From Marsupella aquatica (lineage: Eukaryota > Plantae > Marchantiophyta), in the NCBI GenBank assembly GCA_973895155.1, contig OZ316891.1, positions 23,497,899 through 23,561,898 on the forward strand: a stretch of 64,000 bases of DNA. Direction: 5' to 3'. A program made the position numbers and the translations under genes. Of this stretch, positions 6,184 through 64,000 are shown in pieces. Numbering within the stretch: position 1 is the first letter of the stretch; every line of letters starts with the position of its first letter. The notes under the pieces were generated by a model. That model ran no database searches and was not told the DNA's origin. It saw only the letters and a list, made by a program, of their open reading frames with translations.

Positions 6184-6308
6184 GCTAGCAGATTCTTGAA
6201 AATATGCAGAGCTTTTTCCTAAGGCTACTTCCCCTTCCTTAGGTTTCTATGATTGCTATTCATCCAAATCCGATTCTGGCATCTCGACAATCGGTTTTGG
6301 TTTGAAAA

Positions 6309-8024: not shown

Positions 8025-8036
8025 TGGGTAGTGACC

Positions 8037-13222: not shown

Positions 13223-13291
13223 GTAAGCCATGAGCTCAACAGTGACCCCAATCCTTCACAAGACAGCGATTTCAATCGAGATCACCCTAAG

Positions 13292-39990: not shown

Positions 39991-40694
39991 GGGTATAACA
40001 ACGGTGACACGAAACAGGTAACAAAATTCCTGTTATCAGATAACTCTTAACTGGTAACAGGAAAGTCTTATGGTAAAAGTGTACTTTTTGGCTAAGTTTG
40101 CAAAAAATTAACGTCATTTTCCACCACATCATCAAGTTGAACGTCTTGTTAGTGCCAAATGTGACAAGGTCAGATATAAGCCAAGGGTGTGGTCACAGCT
40201 GCAAAGAGAGGTTCCAAACCGAGTGTCCATTTGTTCTACATGAATAATGTTGTCACTGAATATCCCTGCTATTTAGATACAGCATCATTTCAGAACAGTC
40301 CAGTTCAGAAAGCGCAGTTTGGCCTATGAGAAGGAAAAATAAAATCCATGCAGGGATGGAGTAATTTAGGGTGGGACCCACCCTAAATCCAGTTATAGGC
40401 TTAAACAACCAATCGGCGAAGAAGGGTTCTGGAGTTTGCAATATTGGAGCCGGACAGAGTGTGAAAACTAGCGCCCGGCGCTAACAAAGCTTTAACAGGG
40501 ACAAAAGTTTAAGTTAAGGGACAACGACATGACAATAACCAGATCAAATTCAAAACTTTGAAATATTAATGTTCTAGAACCAGCGCCAGGCGCTAACCAA
40601 AAGCAAGAAAAAACAAGTGTAATATCCGTTGACTACAAACAAAAACCATAGTATCCATTACAAAAAACGACAGTCTCTAGAATGTCGTGTTACT

Positions 40695-41023
40695 CTACAA
40701 ACCATTCACGTTCTGCCTATCCAGCACGAGTTTGACTTCCGCAACTGTGAAAATGGGCTGGCTACACAAGGTAGACTCCTCTACATGAAACTTGAAGACA
40801 TTTATAAACACCCAATACAAATGTTTACAAGGCATATATGGCTTGCCGCGAGAATGACGACGGAAGAAATCCTCACCAGAACAGGTTTGGAAGACGCAAA
40901 TATGGACAAAGTGTTTAGGGATCGAAGGTTCTCGTGGGTCCGGATTTTGAATTGCTTCCCAAATGCAATTCCAATACCCACATCCCACTCGCCATCCAGG
41001 ATCATAGCTTCTTTCCGAGCCGA
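40695..41023 (-). pseudogene. C-terminal SWIM-finger end of the element B transposase
   Basis: KPYMPCKHLYWVF is paralogous to 41515-41817. It reads on from 52820 across the 9-bp TSD (..HSTRME|SARKEAM..). Confidence 0.8.
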
Positions 41024-41071
41024 CTCCATTCGGGATATAACCACCGTGCTAGCAAATAGTAAATAGATATT

Positions 41072-41226
41072 CTCATACGAGCCAATTTTGCCTCGTACAA
41101 GCAAAATTTTGTCTCGTACGAGTAAACAAGTTTATCGTATGAGCATATCTATTTACTTGTACGAGTTTCTGTTTTCTTGTATGAGTTTCTGTTTTCTTGT
41201 ATGAGTATTTTCTTTTCTTGTATGCA
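41072..41226. repeat. subterminal array of 10-bp palindrome CTCGTACGAG variants, 20-22 bp period
   Basis: Copies at 41072, 41092, 41113, 41134, 41156, 41176, 41196, 41217, plus one at the right end (52741). Confidence 0.8.
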
Positions 41227-41514
41227 TTTTAGTTTCTTCTCTTCACGGTATGTAGCGTCCATATATGCAATAATTGTGCGGACAATATTATGGCGGGTCC
41301 CACCATTGTACAACATCAGAGGAAATTTCTTGACGATTTCACACAAGGACTCCAATATATTGCCACGAAATATGAAGTCAAAACAAAGTCATACAATACT
41401 AGCGCCCGACGCTAGTATTGTATTATACAAAAAAACAACACTTTAAGAACTCACACTTCTGCCCGTTAGAAAAGACAAACTACAATTGTAGCTATTCAAC
41501 GATAAAGCAACAGT

Positions 41515-44500
41515 CTACGTTCTCGTTCCCAACTGCCTATCAAGTATGTAACGGACTTCTCCCAACGTTAGAATTGGCTGGCTACATAATGTCGAATCAA
41601 GCACATCCAGTTTGAACACATTCTTGAACACCCAATACACATGTTTGCAAGGCATGTAAGGCTTCCGATAAGTATGCCGACAGTAGAAATACTCGCAAGA
41701 GCAACATGGGAAACAACATATCTGAACCCAATAAGAGGCGACTGATCTCTCATGTTCATGGGTCCGGATACAAAACTGTTTCCCCGACGCATTTCCACTC
41801 GTGATCTCTCTCTCCAATGACGCTCATCACTTCTTTTTCAGAGGCTTCAATTCTCTTCAAATGTGTTTGGGTAAGATGCACTCTTTGCAAGCATTTCTTC
41901 CCGTTCCTTGAAGCGCACCTCACAGATGGGTCAGTTAGGTTGATCCTCTCCGAGAAAAGATTGACATCAATCCGTAATGCAGAAGGCAACGGTGCTTCGA
42001 TTTCATCTCCACGGCCTTCGGAGAGAATAAGGCCTTGTTCTTTCAAAAATTGAATCTCTGCTCCAGAAAGATTGGTCCCTCTGGCAATTGGGAGATGTGA
42101 AGGAACATTGGGAATGTTCGAGACTCCTCTCCTTGTTGTGCTTCGGTGACAGTGGTTGTTGGGGCAAAACCATATCTGATCGTTATAAGGTTGGCCCCTG
42201 AACATTCTGCATCCTCTCACGGAAATTGCAACAACACCATCTGGATTCGGAAGGCCAACCTTCTTTACTCGATTTCGACATTCATCCTCGCATTCATTAC
42301 GACTACCTCCGCGTCCAAGGGTTCCGTTACCCCGTTTTGAGGTCCGACGCAACTGCCAGGCACCGGGAGGTACTTCACTTTCCATTGGGGAAACTGAATG
42401 ACAATATGTAGTCTCGATAGGTATTGCAGGCATCACTGGTGGGACAGAGGATCTCGTTGCTCGACGCGTAGGTGTGTCAATGACCACAACTTCCTCAGAA
42501 GCATCGCTTTTTGACAAATTATGGACCGCATCAATTCCACCGGCTGAAGGCGTAGAAGGCATTTTCTCAAAATCAGTGGAATGCAGGTTTCTCCTTTTCA
42601 AACCTTTTGTATTTGGTGAAGTAACAAGGATGGTATCATGCCTGTGCGAGTCTTTTGCCAAGACGTTCCCAGTTGCATGTCCTTTTCGTTTCACCGATCG
42701 AGTTACAACATCACCATTCAATGGAACGCTTCTTTCCAAATCAAACTCAGCAGCGTTCGACAGGAGGAGATTGGTGGCTTCCTCAAAGAGACGCGGTGAC
42801 CCCGCCAGGTCCGCCGATCTGAAGGCAAGCTCAAAAATAGTTGGGCCAGTTCCTCTGCTCAATCCCCTTTTGTATGCAGTATAAGCAGCAATTTGAGCAA
42901 CCGCTCTATTTTGGTCCGTTTTGCATCCTTCAAACAGACCAACCTTTTTTTTCTGTTGCCATGCTTTCATTCTAGCATGCCTAGATTCCGAACCAATACA
43001 ATTAGGAATCATCCCAGCCTCTTCGGCACTCTTGCTCTGAAACATTGCATGCAAGGGTCTAGTACATGCAAGAAATTGTACACAAAAGTGGCAACACAAT
43101 GGCAATAACAGTAGCGCCAGACGCTAATAAACTGATGATGATATTTCCATGTAAAGAACCGTTTAACACAGAATAAAGGCAGTCCTTACATCACGCATAG
43201 TCCAAACGGATTATTAGCACTCGGCGCTACTATTGTGGATAACAAACTCTTCTATCTCACACATGCTTCACTAGTGCCGAGCGCTATTAATGGGAACATG
43301 CATCCTAGAGCAATGTATAACTCACCAGTCTTATGAAGTTTCCCCATTGTCTCCATCGGACAACCCACCAAGACAGCCACCCTTGCAGCATCCGAAGTTT
43401 GCCTGAGTGACAATTGCCAGACCTCCACCAGTCATCGATTTCCCTCGAGATTCGATATGCTTTCAAGAAAGTTGGCGCGTTCCGAAGATGATCCCACATC
43501 TCCTTGTGCTCTCCGTGCTTTCCATCTTTTACACCTTCTCGGGAATGACGATGAAAAGATTGGAAAAAATGAAAGGCATCTGATCTTTCTTGCTCTGGGT
43601 TGGGTACATCGTCAAAGAACACGTTTTGAACAACATTCCAACCAGCCTGAGCATTGTCCGCCATGAATCCCCGAATTGTAACATCTTGTAAACCATTTTC
43701 ATCGGCAACCTCTAACATCAAACGCCAGGCTCTCTCCAGAGATTTTGCATCTTCGGCCTTTAGCTCACAAGTGAATATGGTGCAAAGTGCCCGGTAATGA
43801 TGATCATATACATGGGCACTGAAAGTAAGCCAATCTGCCGTGCTTCGATGCATGACGTCAAAACTTACCCATGAACCCTCTAACGACCCACCAGGTTTCA
43901 TTCTTTGGAGCAGGTCCAGACCACTCCCGTCACCTTTTACGGTCATTTTAAAGATATGAGCACTCTCGTCACGACAGCCTTGACCAGGGAGCAAGAACCT
44001 ATGAAGAAAAGGCAGTCGGATACACTTTTGCATCCTCACAAGAAATTCCAGTTCCCCTTTCCCCTTCTGATCTTGACGGACACTCCTTAAGACGGATGCA
44101 AACTTTTGAGGAGATGCGACGACAATTAGGGACTCCCAGATTTCCTCCTCTTCTTCAAGAGAGATTTCTTCAACAGAGGCCTCGCAAAATGTATTCGTCA
44201 GTGTCTCAGTCGCAGAGTTTTTAATCCCTGCTGGGGATGCCATGGGGTTTGCAGTGAATCCCTTCTCCAGATGAGACCTTGCAACCTTTTCTGCCTCCCT
44301 CAAAAAGACCCGTCGACTGGGATGATTGTGAAATCCCATATGAACAGCTAGTCACGACATCTAGGCCAAAGACTTCACGCCAACTTTTGCAGATGGATAC
44401 ATGTAGAACATTAGAGCAGGGCAGGCCTCAACGCACATCGGAGGTTTGGAGCAATGGTGACAAACAACTCCACCTTCGGAGATCAATTCCCCAACTCGGA

Positions 44501-45362
44501 ATGGGCCCGAAAGTTTTGGGGTTCTTGCCCACATCTCATTATTTCAAAACTTGTTGTCTTTCCACCACGGACAAGCATTATTTCGACATTGCAGCGATCC
44601 CATACACTGGACTTTCCCGAAATCCCACATTTTCTTTGGAAGAACATTTGAAGACGTTTTTACAATCCGAGTCCAATAATAACAATCCTTACCACGATCC
44701 ATATCTTTCAAATGTTCACCTTTTGCGTTCACACAGTCTACAGGGGGTAACTCAAAAACCACATTCCCATTGTAAGATGTGGGAAGACTAGGCACTACAT
44801 GATGAACAAAATCACTCCCCCTTATAAACCGAGACAATTCACTATGACCTTTGGATTTCAAGATTGTATCCATTGCACTCTGCCGGTACACATTCAAAGG
44901 CCCAATCTTTTCTCGATCCGCATTAGACTCCTTTTTAACCTCGAATGGGTAAAGTGGAATCTTCTCTCCGAGAGTAGTTGTCGCTTGCTTATCATCTCCA
45001 GAACTTTCTGAGAGTTTGATGACATCGAGTTTAGCCGCTGTGGGAGGACGAGTATAGGAGGCCCCAAAATCTCTCAAAACAAAAACCTCATATTCTTTCG
45101 GAGCCTCCAGAGTCCAATATCTTTGACCATGAACAACATCGTAGAAAACTGGAGTCTCCCCCAAACAAACCGACACTAACGAGATTGCTAAAATAGACTC
45201 CTTGGGGACATCAAATCTCACTCCCAAATATTCCTCTGAAACACGCTTTGATTCAGATGATTCAAGGATGGGAATTGTGATTACATCCCGAGTGTCCTTC
45301 CTCGTGACAACGATATTTTGAGCCATGGCTTCAAAAGAGGGATATGCATTTGCCCCGCGCAA
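41515..45362 (-). pseudogene. element A transposase: GCM/WRKY-like Zn domain, MULE DDE core, SWIM finger
   Basis: CMGSLQCRNNAC...CHHC...HMGFHNHP; WVSFDVMHR (D), GFMADNAQAG (D), DAFHFFQS, GSESRHA (E); CSC...PCKH. Intron 43037-43325; a few stops and frameshifts. Confidence 0.8.
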
Positions 45363-45501
45363 AATGAAATATGTTTATCATGAGATCCGAGTACGAGAAG
45401 TAAACGTTCGATTCTCATTATAGAGTTGTTGTGGATTTGGACACACTCCATCAATGACGTTTTGTCGTCTTACCAACGGCAGGATTCGGGTTCATAGTTA
45501 C

Positions 45502-45650
45502 TAGCGCCTGGCGCTACCTCTAAGTGTAAAACACTCTTGGGTGAGGACTACAAATGCCAATAATAATAGCGCCTGGTGCTACCTCTGGGTGCAAACATTC
45601 TTGGGTGAGGAGTACGAAGGCAATAAATAATAGCGCCTGGCGCTACCTAT
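45502..45650. repeat. ~65-bp tandem repeat, each unit carrying the 15-bp palindrome
   Basis: Unit tagcgcctggcgctacctct...cttgggtgagga.tac.aa.gc.aataa, spacings 65 and 64 bp. Confidence 0.85.
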
Positions 45651-46106
45651 TTCAATGGACTTGAAAACATTCAATGGAAGGATAAGTACAATAACGTGAT
45701 ACAGTACGAGTAATTAAGTTGGCACGCTTGAAGATCTCCACTGGATCTTCGTGAATCCGATCCGCCCGGGTCCAAATGTGTCAGAGAGGAAGCGTCCACG
45801 AAAGTTATATCAGAGGGGCCTCTTTGAAGTGGGTACCCAGGACCAAGTGCAAACTCTCCTTATATCTAGTCGTTCCCCTCGGATGTCCTCATTGTCAAGC
45901 CATTCTTGACTGAGTCGCAGTTGTGCCTCATCTTTCGGGCGCGTGGTTCCCGTTATCGCTTTCGGGCCCAGTTGTTCTTTTTGGCTTTCATGCGCGTTAT
46001 TGTTCTCCTTCTCATCCTTGTTTCTCATTCTCGTCCTAGTTCACGCTGTTGTCCTCCTTCACATTCTCGTTCGCGCTTCTTTTTGTCGTCCTCTTCCTCA
46101 CTTTCA

Positions 46107-46535
46107 ATGGCACCTCCACGAGGGAAGGCAAAGGAGGAGGCACTTCCCCCGAGTGACACAGACCGGGAGACCCCCATATCAAATAGCTTACCGCCTTGGT
46201 TGAATGCCGAGAGGACAACGGTTCCAATCTCAAAGAAGGGGAAACTCATCTCAAAGACAAAGAATGTCCCAACTGTGGGCCGCAGCAAAGGATCCAGTCG
46301 GCCAAATGCGAGCGGCCCAACTTCTGTTCCCGCTAGGGATATCGCCACTGCTTCAGTCGGCCGTCCAAGAGCCGACACTATCTGCACGAGAGTCTCCGTA
46401 TCTTCTTCATCTACTGAGAGTGATCGTTCTTCGAGCGGGGACTCATCACCGAGCAGGCGAGGATTTGCGTGGTATGGATCGAGCGATTCGAATGACGACT
46501 CCGATGCGTACAAGCCAAGTTGGTGGGAAGACTGA
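46107..46535 (+). CDS. Ser/Arg/Lys-rich ORF of unknown function inside element A
   Basis: MAPPRGKAKEE... lies between two palindrome clusters. No recognisable domain and no counterpart seen in B. Confidence 0.3.
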   Translation: MAPPRGKAKEEALPPSDTDRETPISNSLPPWLNAERTTVPISKKGKLISKTKNVPTVGRSKGSSRPNASGPTSVPARDIATASVGRPRADTICTRVSVSSSSTESDRSSSGDSSPSRRGFAWYGSSDSNDDSDAYKPSWWED

Positions 46536-49030
46536 TTTCACGTTGTCAGAGCGTATTGTTTGAGTGCTGGAGAGACTTGGAGGATCCACCGAGGTTGATA
46601 GGATTTGTTTTCACTCTTTTCTTCCGATAGAAAACCCATACGGTTCCTTCATTGTATGCCGAATTTCTAGTGTAATGTAACATTTTGTATATGAACGGCA
46701 CAGCCGTTCGTTTTTACCTCGGTGTCATTGATTTTGAATTTAGAAGACCAAGCCTAAATTTCCGGTTCTACTCCCGTGTTTGCATTGTATTTCTGAATGC
46801 GTACATGATCTATTTCTTTGAAACACACGTTTGCTGTCAATGTTTTTACTAGCGTCTGGCGCTATTATGAGAAAAAAGTGTCTGTAACCCTGTCATGACA
46901 AGTCTTATCTCTAAAGTGTTTTTGATAGCGTTGGGCGCTATTAATGAAAGGAATCACAAGGCAGGAGTTATTTCTACTTTTATTTCAACAAATTCTGTTT
47001 AATTGATGTGCATTTTAATAGCGCCAGGCGCTATTGTAATTCATTGGAATATTCGTTGAATGAATGGGTTCATGTGGTCATGTTGTTGTCATTGGACTCG
47101 GATGTCATCATTTATTTGAATACTAGCGCCGAGCGCTAATACAGTTGGCTTGTCGATACCTTCACAATTGTGTTGATATTACTGCCCGTAGCTACATTTG
47201 AAAGTATGTTGAATAATAGCGCCTGGCGCTATCCACAACTATCGACACTGATGTGGTTACAACGGTCACTTTCCAACGGTAATATTATAGTAGATTGAGG
47301 TTCACGGAACCCTTTTTGCTTTTGTCTGGGATGAAAGTCCAATCGGATAATGCCATCTGTACTTGGGACCGTTGTACTCGAATGGCTGGTTCTATTGTAT
47401 CGGTGTTTAATACGAGGTGGAGATTGCTCATTTGGGATAATTTAGTCCGTCTATGCGCTCAGACCTCGGATTGTATGAGTTTGTCAAGTGCATATGTGCA
47501 TCCTTTATTGGTCCCGTACATTTTGAGATGTGATCGTCACAAGAACTGCACGGCGCGTACGACAGTGCCGGGTGGTCGAGTCACTCTCCACGGAAACTTT
47601 TGGCTAGGTGATACGAGAATGGGGGAGGCTGATGGTGGTTATTCTGAGTCCTCTCAATCTTTGTTCGCTGGTTCAGTATACACCCATCGCGTCACTCGAT
47701 CGACTGCGTCCCTATCGACTTCCGAAGCTGAATCTGCACAGCCCTTCCCGAGGTCGAGGAGAGGGAGAATGGACCCTAAGGAGGTCTCCATGGGTGAAGT
47801 CAGTGACATAGGCTTATCGATGGACGAGGTAATATCAAAGCACGCATTGTCATTCAGGAAGGATTTTCGAGGACTCGATAAGGAGCCACCTCAAATTCCT
47901 CTTTGTAGATTGCTCCCCATGGAGGTTGTTCGAACATTACAGAAAGAAAGTTCATCGATCAAGAAGTTGAAAGAATCATTCCGTGTCATCGGGTACAACT
48001 CGCGCATTGGGATGCCTTTCTATGTTCAGCCTGCAAATGCCGACGGGGTTTCTCATATATGCACCAGCGAGATCCGGGACTCTTGGGATCCAATCTGGGT
48101 CGCAGAGAACAACAAGTTTGAGGAAGAGTGTGATCCGGACCCAGCGTTCCATATTCTAAAAGATAAAATGTTTTGTGTGTTTGACGGAAATCATCGATTG
48201 TACTCGTGGTCAATCGTCACGAGGGAGAATCCGGACAACTTGAAGTATCATCCTCGTGTGATTTGCGTCATTTACAATGGTGACAGAGGTTCACTAGTTG
48301 AGCTCGAGGCGGCAATGCACACCGTGAACCAGTAAGTTCTGTTCATTAACTGTTGTTACCCTTGTCATTCATTTTGGACCAAACATGCTTTGCGAAAGTG
48401 TTCATTCCCCAATTTTTGCTAGCGCCCAGCGCTACTAATTCCTTTTCATTGCATCCAGGCTTGGACAAGCAGTCGTCGAGCCTTCCTGGATTCTTGACGC
48501 GGACAGAATTTCCCAAATTCTGTCGCGTGATCTTGATCACTATAAGCCACTAATCGACAGCGCGAACATGGCAAAGTTTGAGGCAATCCAAAAGAAGACG
48601 AGAAAGGGATCTTGGTTTACACATAAAATGCCACAGGATGCTCTCATCTACATTCTGTGTGTGGACAAAATCAAGTCTTACTCAAATCAATTTAAGTCTG
48701 ATATGGCTTTAACCAAAGCTCAAGGGGCTTCTTGGTCAGAAGAGGAGACCACAAAGAGGCATGAGGCAATGATGAAGGAGGCGACCAAAGATTGGTCGAT
48801 CAAAGTGACGAAGATCACCCCTTTACTTCATCCGGATTTTGGAGATTATTTGGGAACCTGTGCTGAGATGTATCCCGTAACTGAGAAGAACAAACGGGAG
48901 AAGAAGCCAGACACAGTTGTATGCACAATGGATCGAGCCAGGTTGTTTACTATTGTTTCATACCTGGATCCAAAATTGAGGTGCACCCTTCTAGTAGCCC
49001 ACTGCACTCCCGAGATTCGGAAACAGTTTT

Positions 49031-49358
49031 CTCGGGGGGGTCACTTCCACGGAAGTGACACATCACGTGCGACGAAGTATAGGCCCATTTAAATGGGTGT
49101 GGCGGAAGACTTCCAAAGTTTGGTGGAAGAACACATAGGGCATGTTTTATTGATTGGTCGACTTTAAAGAACACATAGGCCTATTTAATTGCAAAAAATA
49201 CTTTCTATAAAGTTTTTAGGGGTTTTTTAATAAAAAATGACAAAATTTTAAGAAAGAAAGGGCTTTGCAAAAAATTATTTTTCACTTTAAAGTTAGGGGG
49301 GTCAAACCCTAAAACGTCGCACGCGATGTATGACCCTCCATATAGTGACCCCCCCGAG
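49031..49358 (+). mobile_element. 328-bp MITE, copy 1
   Basis: TIR CTCGGGGGGGTCACT/AGTGACCCCCCCGAG, 8-bp TSD acagtttt. Removing it restores EIRKQF|FHLASVND, as in element B. Confidence 0.95.
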
Positions 49359-49694
49359 ACAGTTTTTCCATCTTGCAAGTGTCAACGACGAGCCTGTGAA
49401 GCAGTGGTGCCATACATGGCATACTTGGAATTCTGTGGAGGGAATTGCAACTGGAATGCTTCACACTTCCTTCAAACAGATTTCTGACCGGATGCCGGCT
49501 GACCGTCTCACAAAGTCTGGGTGTGAGTCAATGGAGGCCATGCTTAAGATCATTCTCGATGAATTCAGAAACTTTGGGGATCTTGTCAAGGCAAAATTCT
49601 TCAACAACTTGTGGTCTTCCAAATATGCGGACAAGGAAGATTACACAGAGCGGAACCGGAAGAGAGCCAAACGATATCTATACCGGTTTTACAT

Positions 49695-50022
49695 CTCGGG
49701 GGGGTCACTTCCACGGAAGTGACACATCACGTGCGACGAAGTATAGGCCCATTTAAATGGGTGTGGCGGAAGACTTCCAAAGTTTGGTGGAAGAACACAT
49801 AGGGCATGTTTTATTGATTGGTCGACTTTAAAGAACACATAGGCCTATTTAATTGCAAAAAATACTTTCTATAAAGTTTTTAGGGGTTTTTTAATAAAAA
49901 ATGACAAAATTTTAAGAAAGAAAGGGCTTTGCAAAAAAATATTTTTCACTTTAAAGTTAGGGGGGTCAAACCCTAAAACGTCGCACGCGATGTATGACCC
50001 TCCATATAGTGACCCCCCCGAG
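49695..50022 (+). mobile_element. 328-bp MITE, copy 2
   Basis: Same TIRs, 8-bp TSD ttttacat. One difference from copy 1 seen by eye. Confidence 0.95.
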
Positions 50023-52819
50023 TTTTACATGTGGATGGAGCTTAGATCTCCTGACACTCTATGGGCATACCCGGCTGCATTTCAGAAATGGGTGTCTATC
50101 AAAGATGGAGACGCTCTTGCCGACCTGTATTGATGTACCCAGCGGAGGGAAAGTTTCCACCACGATCATTGTCGGAGTGGGAGAGACTTCACTGTCCCTG
50201 GTACCTCGACACAGACAAATGGGATTTACCGTTCGACAAAGCTGAGAAGGATGCCTTCATGAAGTTGCAAAAGTCCCAGATCCCTACCAACTATGTGTCT
50301 ACAATGAAGCAAGGTCTCTAGTCTGATGTTGACGAATCTGCATCTGAGTTACAGAAGAATTGTGAGTCTCTTGTCATGCACGTTGACCGAAGCCGTAAGC
50401 CAAGAGGAAAGGCGAAGAATGAGTCAGCTGCACCAAGTGACTCCACAAGGTCCTTCAAGAAAAGTCAGTAGTCTAAGCGCTTTTTGGTTACTTGTTGGCG
50501 CTACTTATGCAGGAGTTTCATTTGGAAATTCCTTTGATTAATAGCGCCTGGCGCTAGTCTGAAAGGTTGGACTCATTCAAGTTTTTGTGCCTAACAGGAG
50601 GTCGAAAGTCCGACACGGAGGTCCCGGCTGCCGAAGGGAAGAATGATGCAACTCCTTAGGCATCGGAGGCAAACACTGGAGCTCAAGAAACCCCGGATCA
50701 AGGGACCCCGGATGGTGCTGGAAAATCCATTGTCCCTCTTGACGCAACTAGCACGAAGAAAAAGAAAAAGAGAGGCGCCGGTGAGGACAGAGCAGCATCA
50801 TCTACTCGAGACGTTATTTCCTATGGACTCCAGAGAGATGTCGGGAATTTTAAGCGAAGGTGTTCTAGACACTGTTTTGTGGAGTCCAATTTAAACGAAT
50901 TTTACAATTTGGTATTTAACAAGGGGATGAAGCCTATGTGGGTTACTAAAGTTGAGGCCTGGGGAAAGGAATTGGTAAAGTCAGGAGACAGAGAGAAGGG
51001 AGTAATGCGTGGCGGAAAAGAGAGGGGCTTTGGTGTGGATGCTGGTTTCATCTACATTCCCACTGGGTTAAAACCAACACTTCTTGATCGGAAGGTTCCC
51101 AAGTGGAACCTTCAGGATTACACTATTCCCAGCTCTTTCTTCCGAGCCATGGAGCCGTTCCTTGCAGACGATGGCCTACTTGCAATTTTACACAGAGGAG
51201 ACTATGATCAGGTATCTGAAGTGATTGCGGCTTGCCAGGATTCTAAGTGTTTCCAGTGTATTTCAACCCACCATGTGGTCATGACTACACCAATGTATAG
51301 GCCCCGATCTGATACTCAGGTAACAATTCCTCTTGCACATACTAGCGCCCGACGCTACTATCAGCATTCGCAATATCTACAATTCACTTATCTTTTGTAA
51401 GGATGAATGGTTGACTAGCGCCAAGCGCTAATATATGTGTCTGTTTTCTTATACTGCCTTCATTGGGAAACTGTGTTGCAGATATTCACACTTACTCTTA
51501 ATATATTTTGCCGCATTTTGACAAAGGGAAGGGTCCCGAAAGACCCCAAGTTCCGGCCACTATCGAATGAAGAAGACCCTTCCGTCACTAACATTATTGG
51601 GTTTTTGTTGCCGCGACATGACCCGACTCCTGAGCTCCAATTTGCAGGAAATTCACGATTGCCTGTGGGTTTCATGCAAACTATTTTGGAATTGGTGACT
51701 CTTCCTAGAGATATCGTTATGGACTGGACAGTAGGTTCCGGTAGTACGTTTGTGGCTGGAGATTATTCTGGTCGCTTTGTTGTTGGGCTGGAAAATCGTC
51801 CAGAGTTTGTTGATACTTCCGGTAAGGTCTTCCTCGATCTTTTATAGAACAAAGAAGTGGTTGCACCAACTCCTCCTAAGAAGATTCCTGGAAGTAAGAA
51901 GCAGGACAGGCTCCGTGCTATTCTAAATTTTGATTCGGAAGACGAGGATGAGGGTGGCAATGCTTCTCAGCAATCTAAAGATGATGAGGTGTCGAAGAAT
52001 GTGGTGGACCTTGGATCTGGAGATGAGGACAGTGAAGAGTCAGAAGAGTAATTTTCTTTAGCTTTCTTTCTCTTGTTGTATACTTTTTTCCAAAGAACTC
52101 CTCTACTCCCTTATGTCTAGAAAATTCGCCCGATTTCCCGACTTCGACTAAAGAACTCCAGTTCAAATTCTCAGGTTAGAGTGGAATCTTCGGAGGCATT
52201 TTCAACTTCGAAGGAACGTCTCTAGGAACGTTGTACAGACCCTGGAGAAGCCATTTGTTCTCCCCTCTTATGCTGAAAAGGCGGCACGACGGGCAGATTC
52301 AGTCAGGACGCTTACTTGGTAGAGTAAGGGTCTTAGACTCAAGAGAGGCTCAGATAGAAAGTTTGTGCAAAATCACTTCGTAGATGATATTGCAAAATCC
52401 AAGTATGTGGACGACGAAGCAGAGTCCACTGATAGATCAGAAAGTAGCGGCTCTGAATCGAACTCAGAGTCGAGTGGTGGTTGTGGATCTGGTCTTTAGT
52501 TCTCCTTGTTTTATTTACCCGTTTATGGAGAACGACGACACTCAATAAGAACGCCGTGACGTGTCGGATTGGAGTAGCGCCCGGGGCTATTACTGTAGCC
52601 GGTATTTCAAAGAGGTTTTTATTTGGTTTTTTCCTTATAGCGCCCGGCGCTAGTATAAATGTACTCAATGGCCGCTTCACGTCCAATATATGTGACAATA
52701 TTTTCATACCCTTCGGTGACTTTTTTTGGGTGCACATTTGCTTGTATGAGTTTTGCTGTTTGCTGTTTACTGTTTGCTGTTTGCTATTTGCTGTCACGGA
52801 GAGATCCCCCCTCCATTCG

Positions 52820-55800
52820 TGTACTGTGAGCCAGTGTTAGATTTGATCGAGGTCTGGAGTTTCCTCGGGGGTCTCACTATATGGGGACCTCCCCATCACC
52901 TCCGACGTTTTTAGGCCTCGGACCCCCTAAAATGTGAGAAATTTTTTAATTTTTTAACCCCTATAAAGTTGGAATATTCTTGGAATATTCCAAATTTTGG
53001 ATTAAAACGACCCTAATGTTCTTATAAGTCTCAAAATTGAATTTAAAAGACCCTATTGTTCTTCTACAAAAATTCTTAAGTCTTCTCTTAGAACCAATAA
53101 AATGACCCTATCCTTCGTCGCACGTGATATGCCATTTTTGTGGAAGTGAAACCCCCGAGGGAGTTTCTCCCATTCCTTGTCCGAAGGCGTACGTTGGGAT
53201 CGGCGAAATTGATTCTTTCAGTAAATGCGTTTACATTAATTCTCAAGTGCAGCGCGAGACGTCGCAACTGTTTGGACCATCGAGACTCCCTGTGCTTCAA
53301 GGAACTCTACCTCGGCAGGTGACAGGTTGGTCCCTTTCACAACTGGCAAGATATCCGGCATAGGAGGAAGGCATTCAACACCACGACGCGGGCGGCTCTT
53401 GTAGCATGTTTTGTTTGGGCAGAACCATATCATTTTTGCAATGGGTGTGCCTCTTAAAATGCGATGTCCGCTGACAACAATGCCGACAACACCTGCTGCC
53501 GAATGGAACCCAACTTTTTTCACACGATTTCGACACTCATCCCTCTCAGAATTTCCATGCAAAGTCCCATTGCACTGAGGCCCTGCCCCATATTTGGCCG
53601 TCCGCCGCAAATGCCAGGTCCCTCTAGGAACGTCCATTTCCAAAGGAGTTGACTCTGTCGGCAAATGTTGAAGAACAGCCGGAGCACTGAGTGGGGGTTG
53701 CGACGATGTTGTTGTTCCTCTGGCTTCAGGGGTGTTTGCGAGGGAATCACTTCCATTCGTTGAAGTGTTGCTACCGCCGATGTCGACTATGGGATCTGTT
53801 ACATTTGCAGGAAAGGAAGTGAAGGTAGTGTTGTTGAGATTCTTCCGTTTGAACCCTCGAGTATTTGGTGTAGTGATGAGAATGGTGTCATGCCGATGGG
53901 AGTCTTGTGGTGAGACAATCCCAGTTGCGAGTCCCTTCCTCTTAACCGACTTTGTGACAATATCTCCATTCAGAGGAGAGCTCCTCTCCAGATCCAAATC
54001 AACAGCGTTTGAAAGAATCATGTTGGTTGCTTCTTCAAATAACTTGGGTGAACCAGATTGGTCTGCGGATCAAAATGCTAATTCCCAGATAGTTGGCCCC
54101 TTCCCTCTATTGAGTCCCTTCCGATACGCGCTGTAACCCGCAACTTGTGACAAAGCTCGATTTTGATCAACTTTGCATGCTTCAAAGAGACCCACCATTT
54201 TTTTGGTAGCCCATGCTTTCATGGAGGCGTGCCTTGACTCTGACCCGGTATAGTTTGGAATGAGCGCACCTTCTTCTGCACTTTTGCTCTGCAATAAAAC
54301 CCGTCCAGACAAAATTTACTTCTTTTGTATAAGCAGCGCCAAGCGCTAGCAATGAGTAGGAGATAATAAAAGAAGATTTATCGGTAAAAGTTTCATTTTC
54401 TGTAAAGTTTGAAGGTTTTCTGAGTGAAAATTAAAGTAGCGCCTGGCGCTAGTATAAACACACTGAGGTTTGACTAATAAACGCATCAGGAAAACTTACC
54501 ACACAAATGAAATTCCCCCACTGACGCCATCAAACAACCCACCAAGATATCCAACTCTGCAACATCATCAGCTTTCCTGGGACACAATTTCCCGCTTGCC
54601 ACCATAACACAATCTCCCTCGAAACTCGATACGCCGCAACAAACGTTGGAGCATTCCGCAATTTCTCTCATAGTTGTCGATGTTCTGGTTGCTTACCCTC
54701 CAAAACTCTTTCTGTAGAGTGTCGATGGAACGACTGGTAAAAGTGAAATGCATCAGAGCGTTCACGTTCAGGGTCTAGGTGCCCTCCAAAAAAGATATTG
54801 CGAACGGCGATCCATCCAGCCTGAGCATTGTCAGCCATAAAACCTTGAATGACAACGTCTTGTAACCCATTTTCCTTACAAACCTCAATCATAATTCTCC
54901 ACGCTTTCTCAAAGGACTCCGTGTCTTCAGCTTTTAGTTCGCATGTGAAGATTGTACAAAGAGCTCGGAAGTTGTGATTGTAAACGTGTGCACTGAAAGT
55001 AAACCAGTCGGTTGTCACTCGCTTCATCACATCAAAACTCACCCAAGCTCCTTCCAATCTTCCGCCAGGTTGCATTTGCCGGAGAAGATCTACACCAGAT
55101 CCATGACCCTTGACTGTCATTTTGAATATATGGGGCCTATCTGCTACACAACCCTGACCCGACAGGAGGTACCTTTGGAGGAAAGAAATGTTATTTGATT
55201 TTTGCATCCGAGCTAGGAAATCTAACTACCATGACCAGCCTGGTCCATTCAAACGCTTTGACAAAGCGATGCAAATTTCTGGGGGGTAGACAGTACCATG
55301 AGAGACTTCCAAATCTCCGTTTCTTCAATATCTACTATGTTGTTGACGTTTTTGCAAAGAGCTTTCACGAGCAAACCGGTTGCAGAATTCAAAATACCAG
55401 GCGGCTTTGCTAGAGGATTGGCTTCATGATTTTTTCTTATCAAATCCTCAGCTATCTTCTCAGCGCTCCTCGAGAAAACTTTCCTACTTGGATGGTTATG
55501 CTCACCTATATGAACTGCGAGCCGAGACATGTGACTACAGGTCTTTGTATCAAGAAGGACTTGAGGGTACATATAAAACAAGTGAGCAGGGCAAGACTTC
55601 ACACAGAAAGGAATCTACGCACAATAGTGACAGACTACACCACCCTCTTCAATCAACAAACCCACCACGTGTTGGCCACTGAGTTTAGGAGCACCATGCT
55701 AGGCCTTTGCATTGCATCTCTTCTTTCGCTGAAAGTACTCACAGGACTTGTTCCTGCACTCGATGAACCCGGTACACGTAACCTTACCAAATTCCCAATG

Positions 55801-56523
55801 TTTCTTTGGATGCACGTTTGCAGTTGTCGGAAAAATTTGGGTCCAAATGTAACAATCTTTGGCACGGTCCATGTCACGAAGTCTAGATCCCTTGGAGAGC
55901 GTTCCCTCAATGGGAGGCAGTTCAAATACAACATTTCCGTTGTACTTGTCTGGCAAACAAGGAACTTGCTCATGCCGGAAGTCCCCTGCCAAGATAAATC
56001 TTGACAGTTCACTATGTCCCGTGGCCTTGAGTAAGGCGTCCATCGCACTCCTCCGGTAGACTTTATGACCAACTCCGGAGGTAGCCACCGGCTCATCCTT
56101 AACAAAAGCGGAAACCGGAACTTTGTACTGCGAAGGAGGAGTGGGTGCAACATCACCATCTTCATTGTCAGATATGTCAACAACAACAACAGGAATGTTC
56201 CCAACTGCTGGTTCCGGAGTGACACGTCTGACATTAAGCGTGTAACTAAGCCCGGCATTCATATGCCAAAAGTGTACTCCCTCATCTACATCGAATGCCG
56301 CAGCCCGTTGAAGTTCTCCACTCGTCGATTCCTGTGGAACAATGGACTCAATATCATTCATCCTCAAATCAAATCTCCCAAGGTAGGTTTCACTAACTTG
56401 CTTGTAAGCATCAGAGACTTGCACGGGGATGTTGACGACGTCTCCAGTACAAGCACATGTAATTACAATTGAGCAAGACATTGTGGAGAAAATGAAGGAA
56501 TCAACAAAGCAAATTCCTCCCAA
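52820..56523 (-). pseudogene. element B transposase (GCM-like plus MULE DDE), paralog of A
   Basis: YNGNVVFELPP, CTGFIECRNKSC, HIGEHNHP, WVSFDVMKR, GFMADNAQAGW, GSESRHA. Intron 54289-54499 is at the same position as in A. Confidence 0.8.
52864..53159 (-). mobile_element. 296-bp related MITE, opposite orientation
   Basis: TIR CTCGGGGGTCTCACT/AGTGAAACCCCCGAG, 8-bp TSD ggagtttc. Interrupts the B transposase. Confidence 0.9.
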
Positions 56524-57416
56524 ATGGAATGCTTATACTAATGCGTGAAGACGACTGACCGTTATAAAAGTAGTTTGAATACGACATAGAATTGTGTCCG
56601 TTGAAATCATAAATGTAGAGTTTGTCCTTTTGCCCCGTTAAGTGCGGGTGTCAGGGATATTTTTTTGTGTCAAAATGAACACATATAGGCCAAGATAATT
56701 CACATGATTTCAACAGCGCCTGGCGCTACCAAAAATTCCAGGATTTATAAGGTTAGAATCCAGTCACACAGCAGACTAGCGTCGGGCGCTAGCATTACAG
56801 TGGACACCAATAAGTCTACTTTTTTGTATCTAAACATGCAATATCATCCAAATTTAGGCACCATTTAGGGATACATGTACTAGCGCCGGGCGCTAGTATT
56901 GGTACACCATATTTAAGGACCAAATGTGAACAAAATTAAACTTCCTACGTCCTAAAGTTCTTCATTTCCAAAAACATTTGCCTAAACTATGACAAAAACA
57001 TAACCTTTAATAGACCACGGAATGGGTAGCATCGGGCGCTATCTATTGAACACATTAAACTGTATGACCAATGTGGTTAAAATTTTACTAGCGCCCGACG
57101 CTAGCATTGCATTACCAAGTTTTAGTAGTCTGGTCAACGGTAATATTTAACGGTAACTACGGTTAGCGTGATCTTCACAAAAACAGTTTAGCGGATTCTA
57201 CATTAATATCTTTCACAGTTCTTAGATTGTCGCTTTGTTTTAACAATAACTAATACCCAATTTCATCGTAACGTCTCTTAAATAGATTACATCAAGGGAG
57301 ATAGCACTGATCAATCGGGTATAATACTCCATCAATTGTTAATTTGGTACGGAGATTCAGTACTCAATCGTGAGAATTGTAGTGTACGACCGTTCGTACA
57401 ACACTCATCGCGGGAG

Positions 57417-58898
57417 ATGATGGATGCAGTCCCCTCCTCGTCGAGGGGGTATAGTGTTGTGGGGGATCGTGATCATGGCTATTGCGAGTCTTCTAAGTCT
57501 TCATTTTCAGGTTTGGTGTATACACGTCGAGTGACGAGGTCAAGCGCATCACTTGTTCCCGTATCAAGTAATTTGTTTCCGAAGCCGACATGAAAAATGA
57601 TGGAGAATGTTGACACATTTGCAATCGGAGATGTCTCATTCTCGAAGACCGACCTTATTTCAAAACATGTCATGTTCTTTGGGAAGGATTTCCGAGGGTT
57701 TAACAAGGAGCCTCCTAGGATTCTGCTGTGTTGGTTGGTGCACATGGAGGTCGTCCGCACTTTGCAGAAAGATAGCTCCTCCATTGACAAGTTGAAAGAC
57801 TCTTTTCGTAGTATGGGATACAATTTGTCGATAGGAATGAGGTTTTATGTTCAGCCGGCGGACGCTGAGGGAGTGACGCTCACTTGCACACAGGAAATTC
57901 ATGATACTTGGGATCCAATATGGATATCCGAAAACAAAAAGTTCGAGGAAGAATGTGCGGCAGACCCCAATTTTCTTGTTCTGAAGGATAAGATGTTCTC
58001 AATTTTTGACGAGAACCATCGGTTGTACTCCTGGACGCTTGTCACTAAGGAGAATCCAGAAAACCCAAAATACCACCCGCAAGTGCTTTGTACTGTCTTC
58101 AATGGGGACAAGGGTTCACTGATTGAAATTGAAGCGGTGATGCACACCGTGAACTAGTAAGTTTGTCTTTATAGCATATCTCTAAGAGGAATTGTTTTAC
58201 GAGCGCCCGGCGTTGCTTGAATGTTTTTCTAATTCCTTTGTTTTCCTTCAGGCTTGGACAAGCCTTGGTCAAACCGTCATGGATCCTTGACGCAGATCGA
58301 ATCAAGAGGATTTTGATTCACGACCTGGAGTACTATAGTAAGCTCATCGACCCTGCCAATTATAAGAAGATTGAGCAGATCAGGCTGAAGATGCGGAAAG
58401 GATCCTGGTACATGAAGAAGATGCCTCAAGAGGCTCTTGTCTATATTCTATGTGAGAATAAAATTAAATCATATTCTAACCAATTCAAGCTAGACATGGA
58501 GTCCGCTGCGGCCCTAGGTACCCCCTGGTCGGCCGAGGAGGTTTCCACAAGGCATGCCATAATGATGAAGGAGGCCACCAAGGACTGGGCAGTGAAAACA
58601 TCAAAAATCACTCCTTTGTTGAGTCCTGAATTTGAGGACTTTCTATCTACGTGCGCATAAATGTATGCTGTGACGGAGAGAAATAAGCAAGAGAAGAAAC
58701 CTGATACCGTCTTGTGTACAATGGACCAAGCCAGGCTTTTTACTGCTGTTTCCGCACTCGACCCCAAGCTCAGGAGTACTTTGCTTATTGCCCATTGCAA
58801 TCCTGAGCTCCGAAGGCAATTCTTCCATCCGAACAGCGTGAATGATGATCTAGTAAAACAGTGGTGTCATACCTGGATTACGTGGAACAATGTAGAGG
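57417..58898 (+). pseudogene. element B accessory gene, ParB/Srx-like N-terminal half (truncated by insertion)
   Basis: Colinear with A: MEVVRTLQK, FSIFDENHRLYSW, MMKEATKDW, VKQWCHTW. Intron 58157-58251 is at the same position as A's first intron. Confidence 0.75.
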
Positions 58899-61379
58899 TG
58901 TGACGCCAATGACATGGTCCTTATTTTGTAATCTGATTAAGTAGGTTGCTGTATGCAAGGAGTAGCTATTGATATTGCATAACAATTAGCAAGATGGCAA
59001 GAATAAGGGCAATCATGGCGTTGAGTGTTAGGGAAATAAAAGGCTATGTCGTAGGTAGTCGGCGACCATATCTCGTTCAATATGTCACCAAATCCGGATC
59101 TGTAAAGAGCATTGGGAAGATCTGGTCAAGGCGAGTAAAATCGATATGAAACACTTGAGAAACGGAGGTGTATTAAGAAAGATACGGTCTGATTAGTGTG
59201 ATGGGTTAACTTGTGGCCGAAATTAGCGGATTCAGCTTCAGTTTCGGGTTAACCCAAGCTCGACCACGGCTTAGCTTATGTGAGCACGGCTTTAGCTTAG
59301 CTCAAGTAAGCACGGCTTCAGCTTAGCTCAGGTAAGCACGGCTTCAGCTTAGCTCAGGTAAGCACGGCTTCAGCTTAGGCTTAACCCGGGTTCGGACTAG
59401 ATTGATCCCGGGTTAGACTTAACTCGGGTTAGCCTAAACTCGGGCTCAGGTTAGCATAGGTAAGCTCGGGTTCAGGCTCAACTTAGGCTAGGTTAGCGGA
59501 TAGCGGATAGCGGGTAGCGGCCTAACCCGAGACCACGGGTTAGCTCTACTCGGGTTAGATAGGATAGCTAGGTTAGCCGAACTCGGGTTAGCTATGTAAC
59601 TCGGGTTAGCGCAGCAGTGAGTACCCCCTCTCGGTTGCGGGGGCATAACTCTCTGTGTATTTGACCAAATCGGCTATAATTGACCTCGTTGGAAAGAGGA
59701 GCTCAAGCCGTTTCCAACGCTGCTATCCACGCAGCAAATGGTTGAATAGAGAAATCAGGAGAGGAGGCGCAAGCTCGCGAAAACCATGGAGGAGGGCCAA
59801 ATCCAAAGTACATAGCCAATTTGAGATAGAAATAAAGCTGTGAGTTAGGGTTCAGTAGTTAGAGATAGTGGCGGCTCTGTTAGGGCTGGGATGGGGCTCC
59901 AGCAGCGTAGCATCCACCCATTTGGGCTCAAGGAGAGAGTATATAGAGCAGCCCCCCGGTAGAGGGGGGGGGGGACTTCAATTGTGTGATCTCACTTAGA
60001 CTGAGCAGCAGGGAGGAGCTCTATGCAAGCAAGGCTGGACTTGGACGCTGCGTGTTGGGGAGAGCTTGGTTGTGCTATTACTCAGGGAGTAATCAGCCAA
60101 GCTTCACAGCAATGGGTTGCTAGGTTTGCAAGCTGGATTGTGGCTCTTTCTAGTGGGTAGCACAACTGGGTTCTTTTCCCCCGATACAGAGCCTTGGTGA
60201 TAGGTGATGTATTGGTGATTGTAAACTGTGGGGAGGATGTCAATTTGATTTGTGGTGAGCACATTAGGGAGGCTGAGACATTGATTGAGGGGCAGCAGGA
60301 GGAGCATTTACAGTTTAGTCTGGCAAGGCTACGTGATCCATGGGGAGTCCCGGCCTTTGTCTGGTGGAGAGCACTAAGGGATCTATGGCCAGAGCGGAGC
60401 TTGCAGGGCAAGCGTGAGGCCGGGCCTCATTGCAGTCTGGGGTAGATCGCCGTTAGGCCTGGTACCAGCTTTGAAGTCGAGTCAACTATGTATGCGTAAC
60501 TTGACGTTCTGAATTGGAGGTGTGAGATCTGTATGTGCCCCCAAGAATGAAGTGCAGTGAAGGAGGTTGAGTTAGGGATTGAGTTTGCAAGGCAAGTACG
60601 GGATTGGTTTGAGTCCAATCTGCCATCGCAATCTGGAGTGAGTCGGGCTCAGGTTCAGGATTGAGCTTGCATGGCAAGCATGGGGCTTTTAGGGCAAGCA
60701 CGTCGTAATCTGGAGGAGACAGCCTTCGGGCCTAGTGTTCGGATCAAGTGTTCTCAGTGAACTGTTGTGCACATCTTTGAATCTAACTGAGTTTTCCTCT
60801 CAGGCCTCATTTCTCTCATGGATGTGTGTGTGTGTGAGGCAATCTGAGTGTATGATGGGACTAGCAGCGCCACTGAGAGGTGTACAAGGTGCATTGAAGC
60901 GGGCTGGGTGAGGACTGTCATAGCTCTGATTGTTGAGAGTGGAATGGCAGAGTGGTGGGGCAATGGCTTAGAAGTCCCTAAGTCGGGAATCAGTCAGGAG
61001 TCACTGGTTTATGGGTACATTCCGGCGGCGGAATAGAAACATACCTATGACAGTAAGCATACGTATAGACCTATGCGCACCATAGCGCTAGGCCCTGTGT
61101 GTACGGGCCCAATATGAAGACCCCTTCTCACCAGAACTATCATGAGCGCAGACCTGATCCCCAACCTTGGTTCCTTGGGATTGAGCTTGGGTGATGTGTG
61201 ATAGAGTCTTGCTATGATAGTCTGGTGTTAAGGGCATAAATTGGTGTTTAGAGGCCTTCACAACATCCCTTCGTGATCCTCAGGTACAAGGAGATGGTTT
61301 TGGCACCCATAGTGACTATTTTGGTGTTAAGACCCATGTGAATCGCGTGACAAGAGGGGATTGCAGTGGGGATGTTACA
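58899..61379 (+). repeat. probable long LTR (TGTGACGCC...GATGTTACA)
   Basis: Begins exactly where the B gene is cut and has inverted TG..CA ends. No TSD or PBS found. Confidence 0.5.
59230..59610. repeat. short tandem repeats (26-bp agcacggcttcagcttagctcaggta ~3.5x; aactcgggttag-like units)
   Basis: Directly visible at 59283-59376 and 59385-59610. Confidence 0.8.
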
Positions 61380-61734
61380 GTGTGCTTTGCGGGAGGCCCA
61401 ACAAACCATTCCCAAGAATTGCTTGCAAGACTGGGCATGTGAATTGTCACGCGATTGACATGGGTCTTAACACCAAAAACATCTCCTTGTACCTGAGGAT
61501 CACGAAGGGATGTTGTGAAGGCCGGTAAACACCAATTTATGCCCTTAACACCAGCCTATATCATAGCCAGACTCTATCACACATCACCCAAGCTCAATCC
61601 CAAGGAACCAAGGTTGGGGATCAGGTCTGCGCTCATGATAGTTCTGGTGAGAAGGGGTCTTCATATTGGGCCCGTACACACAGGGCCTAGCGCTATGGTG
61701 CGCATAGGTCTATACGTATGCTTACTGTCATAGG
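61044..61734. repeat. ~290-bp near-perfect inverted repeat with a 90-bp loop
   Basis: Arm 61044-61353 is the reverse complement of 61444-61734 apart from a ~20-bp indel and a few substitutions. Confidence 0.95.
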
Positions 61735-61755
61735 ACCCAAGCTCAATCCCAAGGA

Positions 61756-64000
61756 TTCGACTTAGGAGAAGGAAGGGAACTGAACTTAGGGAGAGACCTA
61801 GCACCTGAACTTGAGAAAGAGATCAGTGACTTACTGATTGAATTCCAGGATGTGTTCGCATGGAGTCATCAAGATCTGAAAGGAGTAGACCCAAAACTGG
61901 GAGAACACCGAATTGATCTCATGTTAGGAGCCAAATCATTTCGACAACCGATTCGAAGGATGAACCCTAAGTATTCCCTGATGGTCAAGACAGAAATCGA
62001 TAAACTAGTGGAAGCCGGATTTATCACTCCAGTCCTACATTCAGATTGGGTGTCTCCAATTGTGATAGTTCCCAAGAAAGCTGGACCCGATGGTAAACCC
62101 AAGATCCGGGTTTGTCAGGATTACAGAAAGCTGAATGAAGCAACGTTAAAAGACCATTTTCCCTTACCCTTTACTGATATGGTACTAGACATGGTAGCCA
62201 GTCATGAACTATATTCCTTCATGGATGGGTACTCTGGTTATAACCAAATCAGGATTCGGCAGGAAGACCAAATCAAGACGGCCTTCATCACGGAATGGGG
62301 GATCTATGTCTTCAATCGTATGCCGTTTGGACTTTGCAACGCACCAGCTATGTTCCAACGATTGATGGTGAACATTTTTCATGATTACTTGAGAAAGTTC
62401 ATGGAAATCTTCATTGATGACTTTGCAGTATTTGGGAAGGCATCGAAACATGCTAAATATCTCAGGAAAACCTTCATGAGATGCAAAGAGGTAGGTCTCA
62501 AGTTACACCCAGATAAATGTTTCTTTGCAGTAACCGAGGGGGTGCTACTAGGTCACAAGGTATCAAAGAAGGGCATTGAGATTGACAAAGGTAAGCTAGC
62601 AGTATGGCTTGACATCATGCAACCTAAGAACATAAAGGATGTAAGATCCTTCTTAGGCTGCATTGGGTATTATCGTAGGTTTATTAAAGATTTTGCCAAG
62701 CTAGCTTTACCATTAACCAACATGCTCAAGGCAGGGGCAGACTTTGAACCCACACCCGAACGAGTCACAGCGGTGGTAGAATTGAAGCAGATGTTAGTTG
62801 AGGCCCCAGTCATGATAGCACCGGACTGGAACAAAGATTTTCATGTTTTTGTAGATGTCTCGGGCTTCTGTATCGGCTCAGTACTAAGTCAGTTGGATGA
62901 GAAAGGAAGGGACCATCCCATATACTTTGCAAGCCGTCAGCTGGCCGATGCCGAACGGAACTACTCCACCACAGAAAGAGAAGCATTAGGAGTCATTTAT
63001 TCCTGTAAAAAGTTTAGGCATTATTTGCTAGGTTACAAGGTCATCTTTCATACCGATCATGAAAGTTTGAAGTACCTAGTCAATAAACCAGACCTTACAG
63101 GCAGAGTAGCAAGATGGATTTTGCTATTACAGGAGTTTGACTACGAGCTAAAGATCAAGCCAGGAAAGTTACATGCCAATGCCGACTTCTTCTCAAGGAT
63201 CACAGGTGAACCAGCCACGGATTGCATCGATGATCAATTTCCCGACGAGGAACTATTCATTGTGGACTTAGCTGAAACATGGTACCCTGAGATTTTACAA
63301 TTTCTCAGCACGTCTAGATTACAGCTAGGGCTAACCCGAGAACAAGCCGCAGTCTTTTTACGGAAGGTCAGACAGTATCAGTGCATTAAAGGCATACTGC
63401 ACAAGCATGGAATCAACGGCACGATTCAAAGATGTTTGGAAAAGGGAGAGGTAAAACGAGTCTTACGGGCTATGCATGGAGAAGAGGCCGGAGGACATTT
63501 TGCCCCAGTAACCACGGCTAAAAAGATATTAAATGCCGGTTACTGGTGGCCTACCTTGCACAGGGATGTCTATCAGTTTATCAAACAATGCAATCCTTGT
63601 CAGCGAGCAGGAGGACCAAGGGCGTCCACCAGACATCCACTGCACCCTATTCTACCTCTGGCACCATTCGAAAAGTGGGGTATTGATTACATCGGACCTC
63701 TGAAACCACTGACCCACCCTCGACGAAACAAGTACATCATCCTGGCTACGGATCATGCAACTAAGTGGGTGGAGGCCAGGCCGACCACGAAGGATGATGC
63801 AATTACTACGGCTAGATTCATGTATGAGCAGATCTTCACCAGGTATGGGGCACCCCTAGAATTAGTTAGTGATAGAGGAACCCATTTTTTGAATGATATA
63901 ATTAGTCGTTTAAATGAACAGTATTTAGTTAGACATAGGCCTACTACTCCTTACCACCCAAAGGCAAATGGATTGACAGAACGAGCCAATGGAATTATAG
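61756..64000 (+). CDS. pol: gypsy-2 family pol (RT-RNase H-integrase), apparently open, runs off the window
   Basis: Frame from 61756 reads FDLGEGRELNLGRDL...FQDVFAWSHQDLKG. It is colinear with 14754-16980 and lacks that copy's stops and deletions. Confidence 0.9.

Follow-up and report, generated by a model that had tools for sequence, protein, structure and literature searches.

What use could a transposon make of a ParB-like domain joined to an amino-methyltransferase (MTase) of prokaryotic type, and does such an MTase still methylate? The question is raised by a predicted four-exon gene at 47619–52051 (plus strand) in a 64,000-nucleotide stretch of the liverwort Marsupella aquatica (contig OZ316891.1; this whole stretch is called the window hereafter). 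The gene is carried by an 11.8 kb DNA transposon, here called element 1, which is probably Mutator-like. It is a ParB-MTase gene of a transposable element (TE), of an architecture already known, with two differences: it resides in a land plant, and motif IV of its MTase is lost. Newly described here is an element-specific palindrome, TAGCGCC-N-GGCGCTA, which is confined to non-coding sequence and present in all six mapped introns.

Gene model

Exon 1 (47619–48331) encodes the ParB/Srx-fold domain with the string VFDGNHRL, and exon 2 (48459–50463) a central region that is a candidate DNA-binding part. In exon 3 (50598–51319) a charged linker is followed by the motif IV site YIPT (51053–51064) and motifs V–VII, while exon 4 (51482–52051) holds the half that would bind S-adenosylmethionine (SAM), with motifs X, I and II, and an acidic tail. 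The three predicted introns (48332–48458, 50464–50597 and 51320–51481) are of the GT..AG type and have compatible phases; minus two insertions, the coding length is 3338 bases, about 1,110 codons. The motifs on which a sequence-only reading had based its ParB-plus-MTase proposal are present in the order it gave: VFDGNHR in exon 1, VDAGFIYIPTG (51035–51067) and LADDGLLAI in exon 3, and ILELVTLPRDIVMDWTVGSGST..GRFVVGLE in exon 4.

The four exons probably encode one protein. Homologs of exon 1 stop exactly at the position of intron 1 in 10 of 13 cases (the other three continue into unrelated residues), and this shared position supports the predicted splicing indirectly and ties exon 1 to exon 2. 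Parts of exons 3 and 4 occur in a single chain in the database proteins P0020, P0021, P0073, P0094 and P0099. An N-terminal profile built from two MTase-like proteins of Riccia ranks the end of exon 2 first among 858 six-frame tiles (E=0.003), by which the Riccia proteins tie exon 2 to exons 3–4; these and the other linking proteins are gene models, not transcripts.

The copy in the window is dead. Exon 2 is interrupted by two miniature inverted-repeat transposable elements (MITEs) of 328 bp each, at 49031–49358 and 49695–50022, which have CTCGGGG..CCCCGAG ends, are 99.7% identical and are flanked by the 8-bp duplications ACAGTTTT and TTTTACAT, respectively. A frameshift lies near 50130, and stops are found at 50319 (exon 2), 50657 (exon 3) and 51845 (exon 4). 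Copies elsewhere were sampled via contigs from four public runs, X1–X4 (40 matches listed). In all four, contigs join across both MITE sites; among the matches listed, the codon at 50657 is a sense codon in all contigs, and the extra base near 50130 is present in some. The MITE family itself, whose two copies in the gene are 664 bp apart, has a 77% relative at 52864–53159 and very deep cover in these runs.

The liverworts Calypogeia fissa and Riccia sorocarpa are the source of 9 of the 20 matches to the MTase part that were looked up. Scans of metagenome loci returned none and then four, L015–L018, of which L015 and L016 look like relatives and L018 is unrelated; scans of viral loci and of prokaryote genomes returned no relatives. 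P0012, a homolog of exon 1, and P0061, a homolog of exon 3, both list a 7196-base ENA contig, possibly one contig with both halves.

The methyltransferase domain

Exon 4 matches PF01555 above the cut-off (E=1e-7, 32.6 bits against 26.7), at profile positions 164–219 of 221 only, which is the SAM-binding half. Its best PDB matches are DpnA, M.PvuII and M.MboIIA, and beta-class enzymes are also its best phage matches. An exhaustive homolog search gave 93 matches, 92 of which were read (P0015 was left out); 45 cover exon 3 and 42 cover the site of motif IV. The count for exon 4 leaves out P0097, P0098, P0106 and P0110, which have canonical motifs and were taken as ordinary MTases. Over the 53 family rows of this part, the aspartate of motif I is kept in 47, its two glycines in 40 and 44, and the acidic residue ending strand 2 in 44. 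Motif I and this acidic residue are located C-terminally, as in beta-class amino-MTases, which bears out the proposal of a beta-order C-terminus with a retained SAM motif.

The placement of motif IV depends on the family. From the window sequence alone the register proposed before is at chance, since 1337 of 2000 shuffles score as high against 115 reference enzymes, and 930 of 2000 do so when scored with a motif matrix. A profile of the 45 exon-3 rows, on the other hand, aligns motifs IV to VI with those of the references (P=0.0036; it scores 25.4, whereas 40 column shuffles reach 17.1 at most), pairing the family string aDl.Fi.LPTG with the reference string vDlvlTDPPYG. By way of this profile the permuted order, with motifs IV–VI before X-I-II, is recovered. 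Four of the 42 rows, all from Riccia, read DPPT, DLPS, DMPS and DMPT, and the first D that they keep fixes the register. The competing string VVMTTPMY scored higher on the window sequence and was ruled out, because the family places D-x-P at YIPT and does not conserve VVMTTPMY. Strings reading DPPY within the gene span are only chance translations of the MITEs, and an SPPY in P0096 falls within the linker. Leads from the Atlas for exon 3 name a methyltransferase, all of them sub-0.9.

At the site so defined, none of the 42 rows has the catalytic aromatic residue (Y, F or W at the fourth place), and the window copy reads YIPT where an active beta-class enzyme has [DSN]PP[YFW]; of the 115 references, which are phage and plasmid enzymes, 113 have a DPPY-type motif. 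In the family the residue at the first position is free to vary (Y, A, F, S, D, C), and the HPTxKP segment of the reference enzymes is replaced. The site itself is conserved as x-L-P-T-G, with P in 39, T in 29 and G in 28 of 46 rows. Diverged copies in two of the runs have 16 substitutions near it, 11 of them silent by reading; Y-[IL]-P-T-G is kept and none restores the motif. As the aromatic residue is missing from all 42 rows but the SAM-binding motif is conserved, the loss is an old one rather than a decay of the window copy. The earlier description of the catalytic motif as non-canonical thus holds for the whole family, while its suggestion that the motif had simply decayed does not agree with these mostly silent changes. 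Family-wide loss of motif IV together with a kept motif I makes the domain of exons 3–4, as judged from its sequence, a conserved pseudo-methylase. Among the options raised before, we favour a reader or decoy.

It appears unlikely that the domain marks the element, either as a still functional enzyme whose chemistry or substrate has changed (to a different base position, to RNA or to protein) or, in the manner of METTL14 with METTL3, as a subunit that partners an active methylase. Such a role would agree with the conservation of motif I and the acidic residue over 53 rows, with that of the x-L-P-T-G site and with the D kept in the Riccia members. However, a catalytic residue should not vary freely as the first position does, the aromatic residue is in no row, the HPTxKP segment is replaced, and no canonical partner gene was seen in the element, neither in the plus-strand frames of the gene nor in the lists of open reading frames (ORFs).

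As far as the available parts of the papers cited here and below go, the activity of the bdelloid enzyme N4CMT is abolished by changing SPPY to APPA (PMC8885841), and DIRS1 elements offer a precedent for adenine MTases that are TE-borne and inactive (PMC4738411). Mollivirus Mo1-1 (L001:2027–2851) encodes an intact beta-class MTase with DPPF that matches the SAM half weakly (E=0.5).

The ParB-fold domain

Exon 1 has 13 homologs of 40–68% identity, and D-x-N-H-R-L is invariant in all 15 rows of its alignment. A model from 17 sequences reaches a predicted local distance difference test (pLDDT) of 83.6 and a predicted template modelling score of 0.80, whereas the model from the single sequence has a pLDDT of 32. 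When the former was realigned to 264 chains, the top 13 were all ParB, Noc, KorB, PadC or Pnob8, ahead of sulfiredoxin and SerK; the best, Caulobacter ParB, gives a root mean square deviation of 2.6 over 98 residues and a Z of 8.1, a moderate match, as a Z near 8 is a level that the tool calls common. Two further points count against the assignment: two of the five exon 1 models are poor, and in a Foldseek search the best E is 0.037, with none below 0.001, although the leading rows are PadC, Noc, KorB and ParB. No ParB match was found for exon 1 in Pfam, nor in NCBIfam or by PDB sequence searches. In PHROGs it matches a ParB-like family at E=0.11, and the Atlas clusters for this part have ParB_N in 11% of members, and DUF3723. 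The ParB/Srx N-terminus that had been read from VFDGNHR thus stands by its predicted fold but not by a Pfam match, and a ParB/Srx core fold with a G-x-x-R type motif (DGNHR) is well supported by the model.

L017 encodes a distantly related ParB-like protein whose downstream partner is another one: a 662-codon eukaryote-like ORF with VFDGNHRL (707–2695) is followed by a second long ORF (3257–4390).

The transposon and its sister element

Element 1 (41033–52810) has short, imperfect terminal inverted repeats that match at 23 of the first 40 bases, and the 9-bp target duplication CTCCATTCG flanks it at 41024–41032 and 52811–52819. The earlier view that the gene is TE-borne is thereby confirmed. 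Many copies of the element occur in runs X1–X4. On the minus strand, divergent from the ParB-MTase gene, lies a broken transposase-like gene (41515–45327) with a SWIM-like C-terminal exon, 68% identical to its sister copy. Duplication and ends conform to what is expected of Mutator-like elements (8–11 bp and inverted ends), and together with motifs recognised by eye they suggest that element 1 belongs to this group. The motifs are SFD, FMADNAQA, DAFHF and the SWIM-like motif, which we take to be of Mutator type; no library match confirms this, and no MULE DDE transposase domain was found in Pfam, NCBIfam, PDB or plasmid searches.

Element 1 is inserted in a sister element of the same layout. 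The latter extends over 52820–58900 at 65–70% nucleotide identity, with a transposase on the minus strand and a ParB gene on the plus strand that starts at about 57450 and is cut off near 58900. Across the insertion the sister transposase frame resumes at 40695–41032, within a segment (40300–41032, minus strand) that holds the 3′ end of this gene, with its SWIM-like exon, and two palindromes. Between the divergent genes of element 1 (45330–47618) there are eight palindromes. This region also holds a 221-codon Ser/Arg-rich open frame, MAPPRGKAKEE... (45870–46535, plus strand), possibly a third accessory exon, which had no family match in library searches. Just inside the left end are a 100-bp imperfect inverted repeat and 20-bp tandem repeats (41058–41157 and 41147–41235).

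Comparison of the two elements bears on whether the gene has a function at all. Amino-acid identity of the ParB gene is 67–69% (68% for exon 2, where silent sites are saturated), with pN 0.17–0.20 and pS 0.80–0.89; the transposase behaves likewise, apart from the pair for its exon 2, which was out of frame and was excluded from the dN/dS estimates. These values indicate purifying selection between the sister elements. That the gene is a captured and decaying bacterial or phage gene, a passenger without function, may be suggested by the two insertions, the frameshift and the three stops of the window copy and by the truncation of the sister copy. This is very improbable and largely refuted at the sequence level, as amino acids are conserved in spite of saturated silent sites, homologs down to about 30% identity share an intron position, and other copies are free of both MITEs and of the stop at 50657.

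Dispersed palindromes and CpG content

The 15-bp palindrome TAGCGCC-N-GGCGCTA occurs in 27–28 copies at 40469–58215, all of them non-coding. Its core, TAGCGC-N3-GCGCTA, is matched 29 times in the window, where 0.61 matches would be expected, and 27 of these 29 are inside the two elements. All 27 lie outside the exon list, although exons make up 12.7 of 18.5 kb (about 69%), and, if up to 3 mismatches are allowed, none of the six mapped introns is without a palindrome. The palindrome is common to elements that are only 65–70% alike. It is thus a cis palindrome, element-specific within the window, and a candidate parS-like site. ParB proteins and parS sites are an established pair, and a ParB-fold protein beside dispersed palindromes recalls it.

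With motifs and MITEs masked, the two elements have observed/expected CpG ratios of 0.77 and 0.75, and the region separating the divergent genes has one of 0.98, while ten neighbouring segments range from 0.42 to 0.68. This contrast is suggestive only, because ages differ.

Possible function

On this basis we hypothesize that the gene has an accessory role in a Mutator-like transposon and that its product would bind the 15-bp palindromes of its own element and regulate it. The central region encoded by exon 2 would read the palindrome, by analogy with the reading of parS by ParB, and the ParB domain would bind nucleotide, dimerise and spread the protein along the element. The methylase shell may bind SAM plus DNA or a flipped base but transfer no methyl group. 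By analogy with the role of VANC for VANDAL, this shell may protect the element against methylation by the host, which would keep both genes transcribed. Whether intact copies make such a self-binding regulator of about 1,110 residues, with a non-catalytic MTase domain and a probable anti-silencing role, we regard as an even call. More tentatively, liverwort Mutator-like transposons may carry a complete parS/ParB system, in which a nucleotide-gated sliding clamp would load on intron palindromes and spread, with the disarmed methylase as an anti-silencing shield sensing SAM or modified bases.

Several observations weigh against a regulator of this kind. No copy of the palindrome was seen in L015–L018, four short loci from outside the window, and in coding parts the CpG gap is small (0.68–0.72, touching the upper range of the neighbours). 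The transposase has a Cys/His DNA-binding region of its own and could be the reader of the palindrome. No single protein covering both the ParB and the MTase parts was found among database proteins; word-based protein searches gave no long relatives either, which is weak evidence by such searches. Exon 2 had no family match in library searches, and no helix-turn-helix was identified in it, though no fold was modelled for this exon.

The palindromes might instead serve transposition. The protein would then be a co-factor like MURB or TnpA, and it or the transposase would use the palindromes to loop or pair the ends and build the transpososome, with silencing not being the target. Short terminal repeats that agree at only 23 of 40 positions may call for extra sites; MURB is directly bound by MURA (PMC12973397), and cognate copies are activated by a Mutator transposase alone (bioRxiv 2026.08.24.746577). 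We consider this explanation doubtful, as the palindromes are dispersed over introns and the central region without clustering at the ends, and the kept SAM-binding motif is left unexplained.

Relation to known systems

The architecture itself is already known, given a ParB-plus-MTase TE gene in Ectocarpus (PMC12477816) and TE accessory genes in Bostrychia (bioRxiv 2025.02.11.637652). The accessory gene of Sola1-1_Ec32 in Ectocarpus combines a ParB-like domain and an N4-cytosine/N6-adenine MTase in one protein of 1104 amino acids, compared to about 1,110 here, and in both elements it is located on the strand opposite the transposase. The likeness is one of layout and length. That element is a Sola in a brown alga, and element 1 is Mutator-like in a liverwort. 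For the Ectocarpus protein, binding and modification of the element that carries it have been proposed; the passage on it predicts methylation and does not mention motif IV, which is lost in the window gene (PMC12477816).

Plavaka elements of Bostrychia (PAG2 and PAG3) and Mutator elements of Chondrus likewise have accessory genes with PF01555 and ParB-like domains, and inverted-repeat arrays are found beside the ParB-like PAG3 gene. Unlike in the window gene, the domains are divided there between two genes, one of which joins ParB to a 2-oxoglutarate oxygenase and the other the MTase to a SET domain, and the repeats are tandem arrays, while the palindromes of the window are dispersed in introns (bioRxiv 2025.02.11.637652). 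The placement of these palindromes matches that of the sites of VANC21, short motifs in the introns and intergenic DNA of VANDAL21, the element that encodes it. VANC differs from the window protein in its domains (DUF1985/DUF287) and in a 9-bp motif arrayed in one orientation, and no homology is claimed; its anti-silencing function is shown, whereas for the window gene it is only inferred (PMC5735166).

Phage fusions of ParB and N6_N4_Mtase (Javan213, WOVitA1, AcaML1) have the same order, ParB_N and then a beta-class MTase. They comprise 387–510 amino acids with intact DPPY/SPPY and no introns, whereas the window gene adds a central region of about 450 residues; the ParB parts of both give a weak profile match (P=0.046).

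The sequence-only reading had also pointed to MpDN4MT1 of Marchantia and to N4CMT, which are eukaryotic MTases of the beta-class PF01555 and prokaryotic type, as is the window domain. Both are active host enzymes with TSPPY or SPPY, which is absent here (bioRxiv 2021.02.12.428880; PMC8885841). A special link to these enzymes is thus not borne out, and in the available parts of either paper no mention of ParB was found. In the literature other than Iyer et al. (2011) and the bioRxiv supplements, we found no land-plant and no catalytically dead ParB-MTase TE gene.

Other features of the window

Elsewhere in the window there are fragments of a CACTA/EnSpm-like transposase (26930–30029, plus strand; DUF4218, E=5e-28) and decayed Copia- and Gypsy-like retrotransposon ORFs, recognised by eye (411–2636, 3475–9404, 11889–17564 and 61750–64000). 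The segment at 17.6–21.5 kb recurs at 32.5–38.3 kb in both orientations, and a near-perfect long inverted repeat at 61044–61734 has arms of 176, 87 and 35 nt that are 95–99% complementary.

Implications

The gene family says little on how DN4MT1 arose. If a complete parS/ParB system is indeed present, land plants would have a second anti-silencing system, unrelated to the first, and a ParB clamp would be acting on nuclear chromatin. With a candidate protein and a precise candidate site at hand, self-recognition is directly testable by DNA binding. The data further suggest that, in land plants at least, ParB-MTase genes of transposable elements are not methyl writers, which alters what the proposal made for the algal gene should predict.

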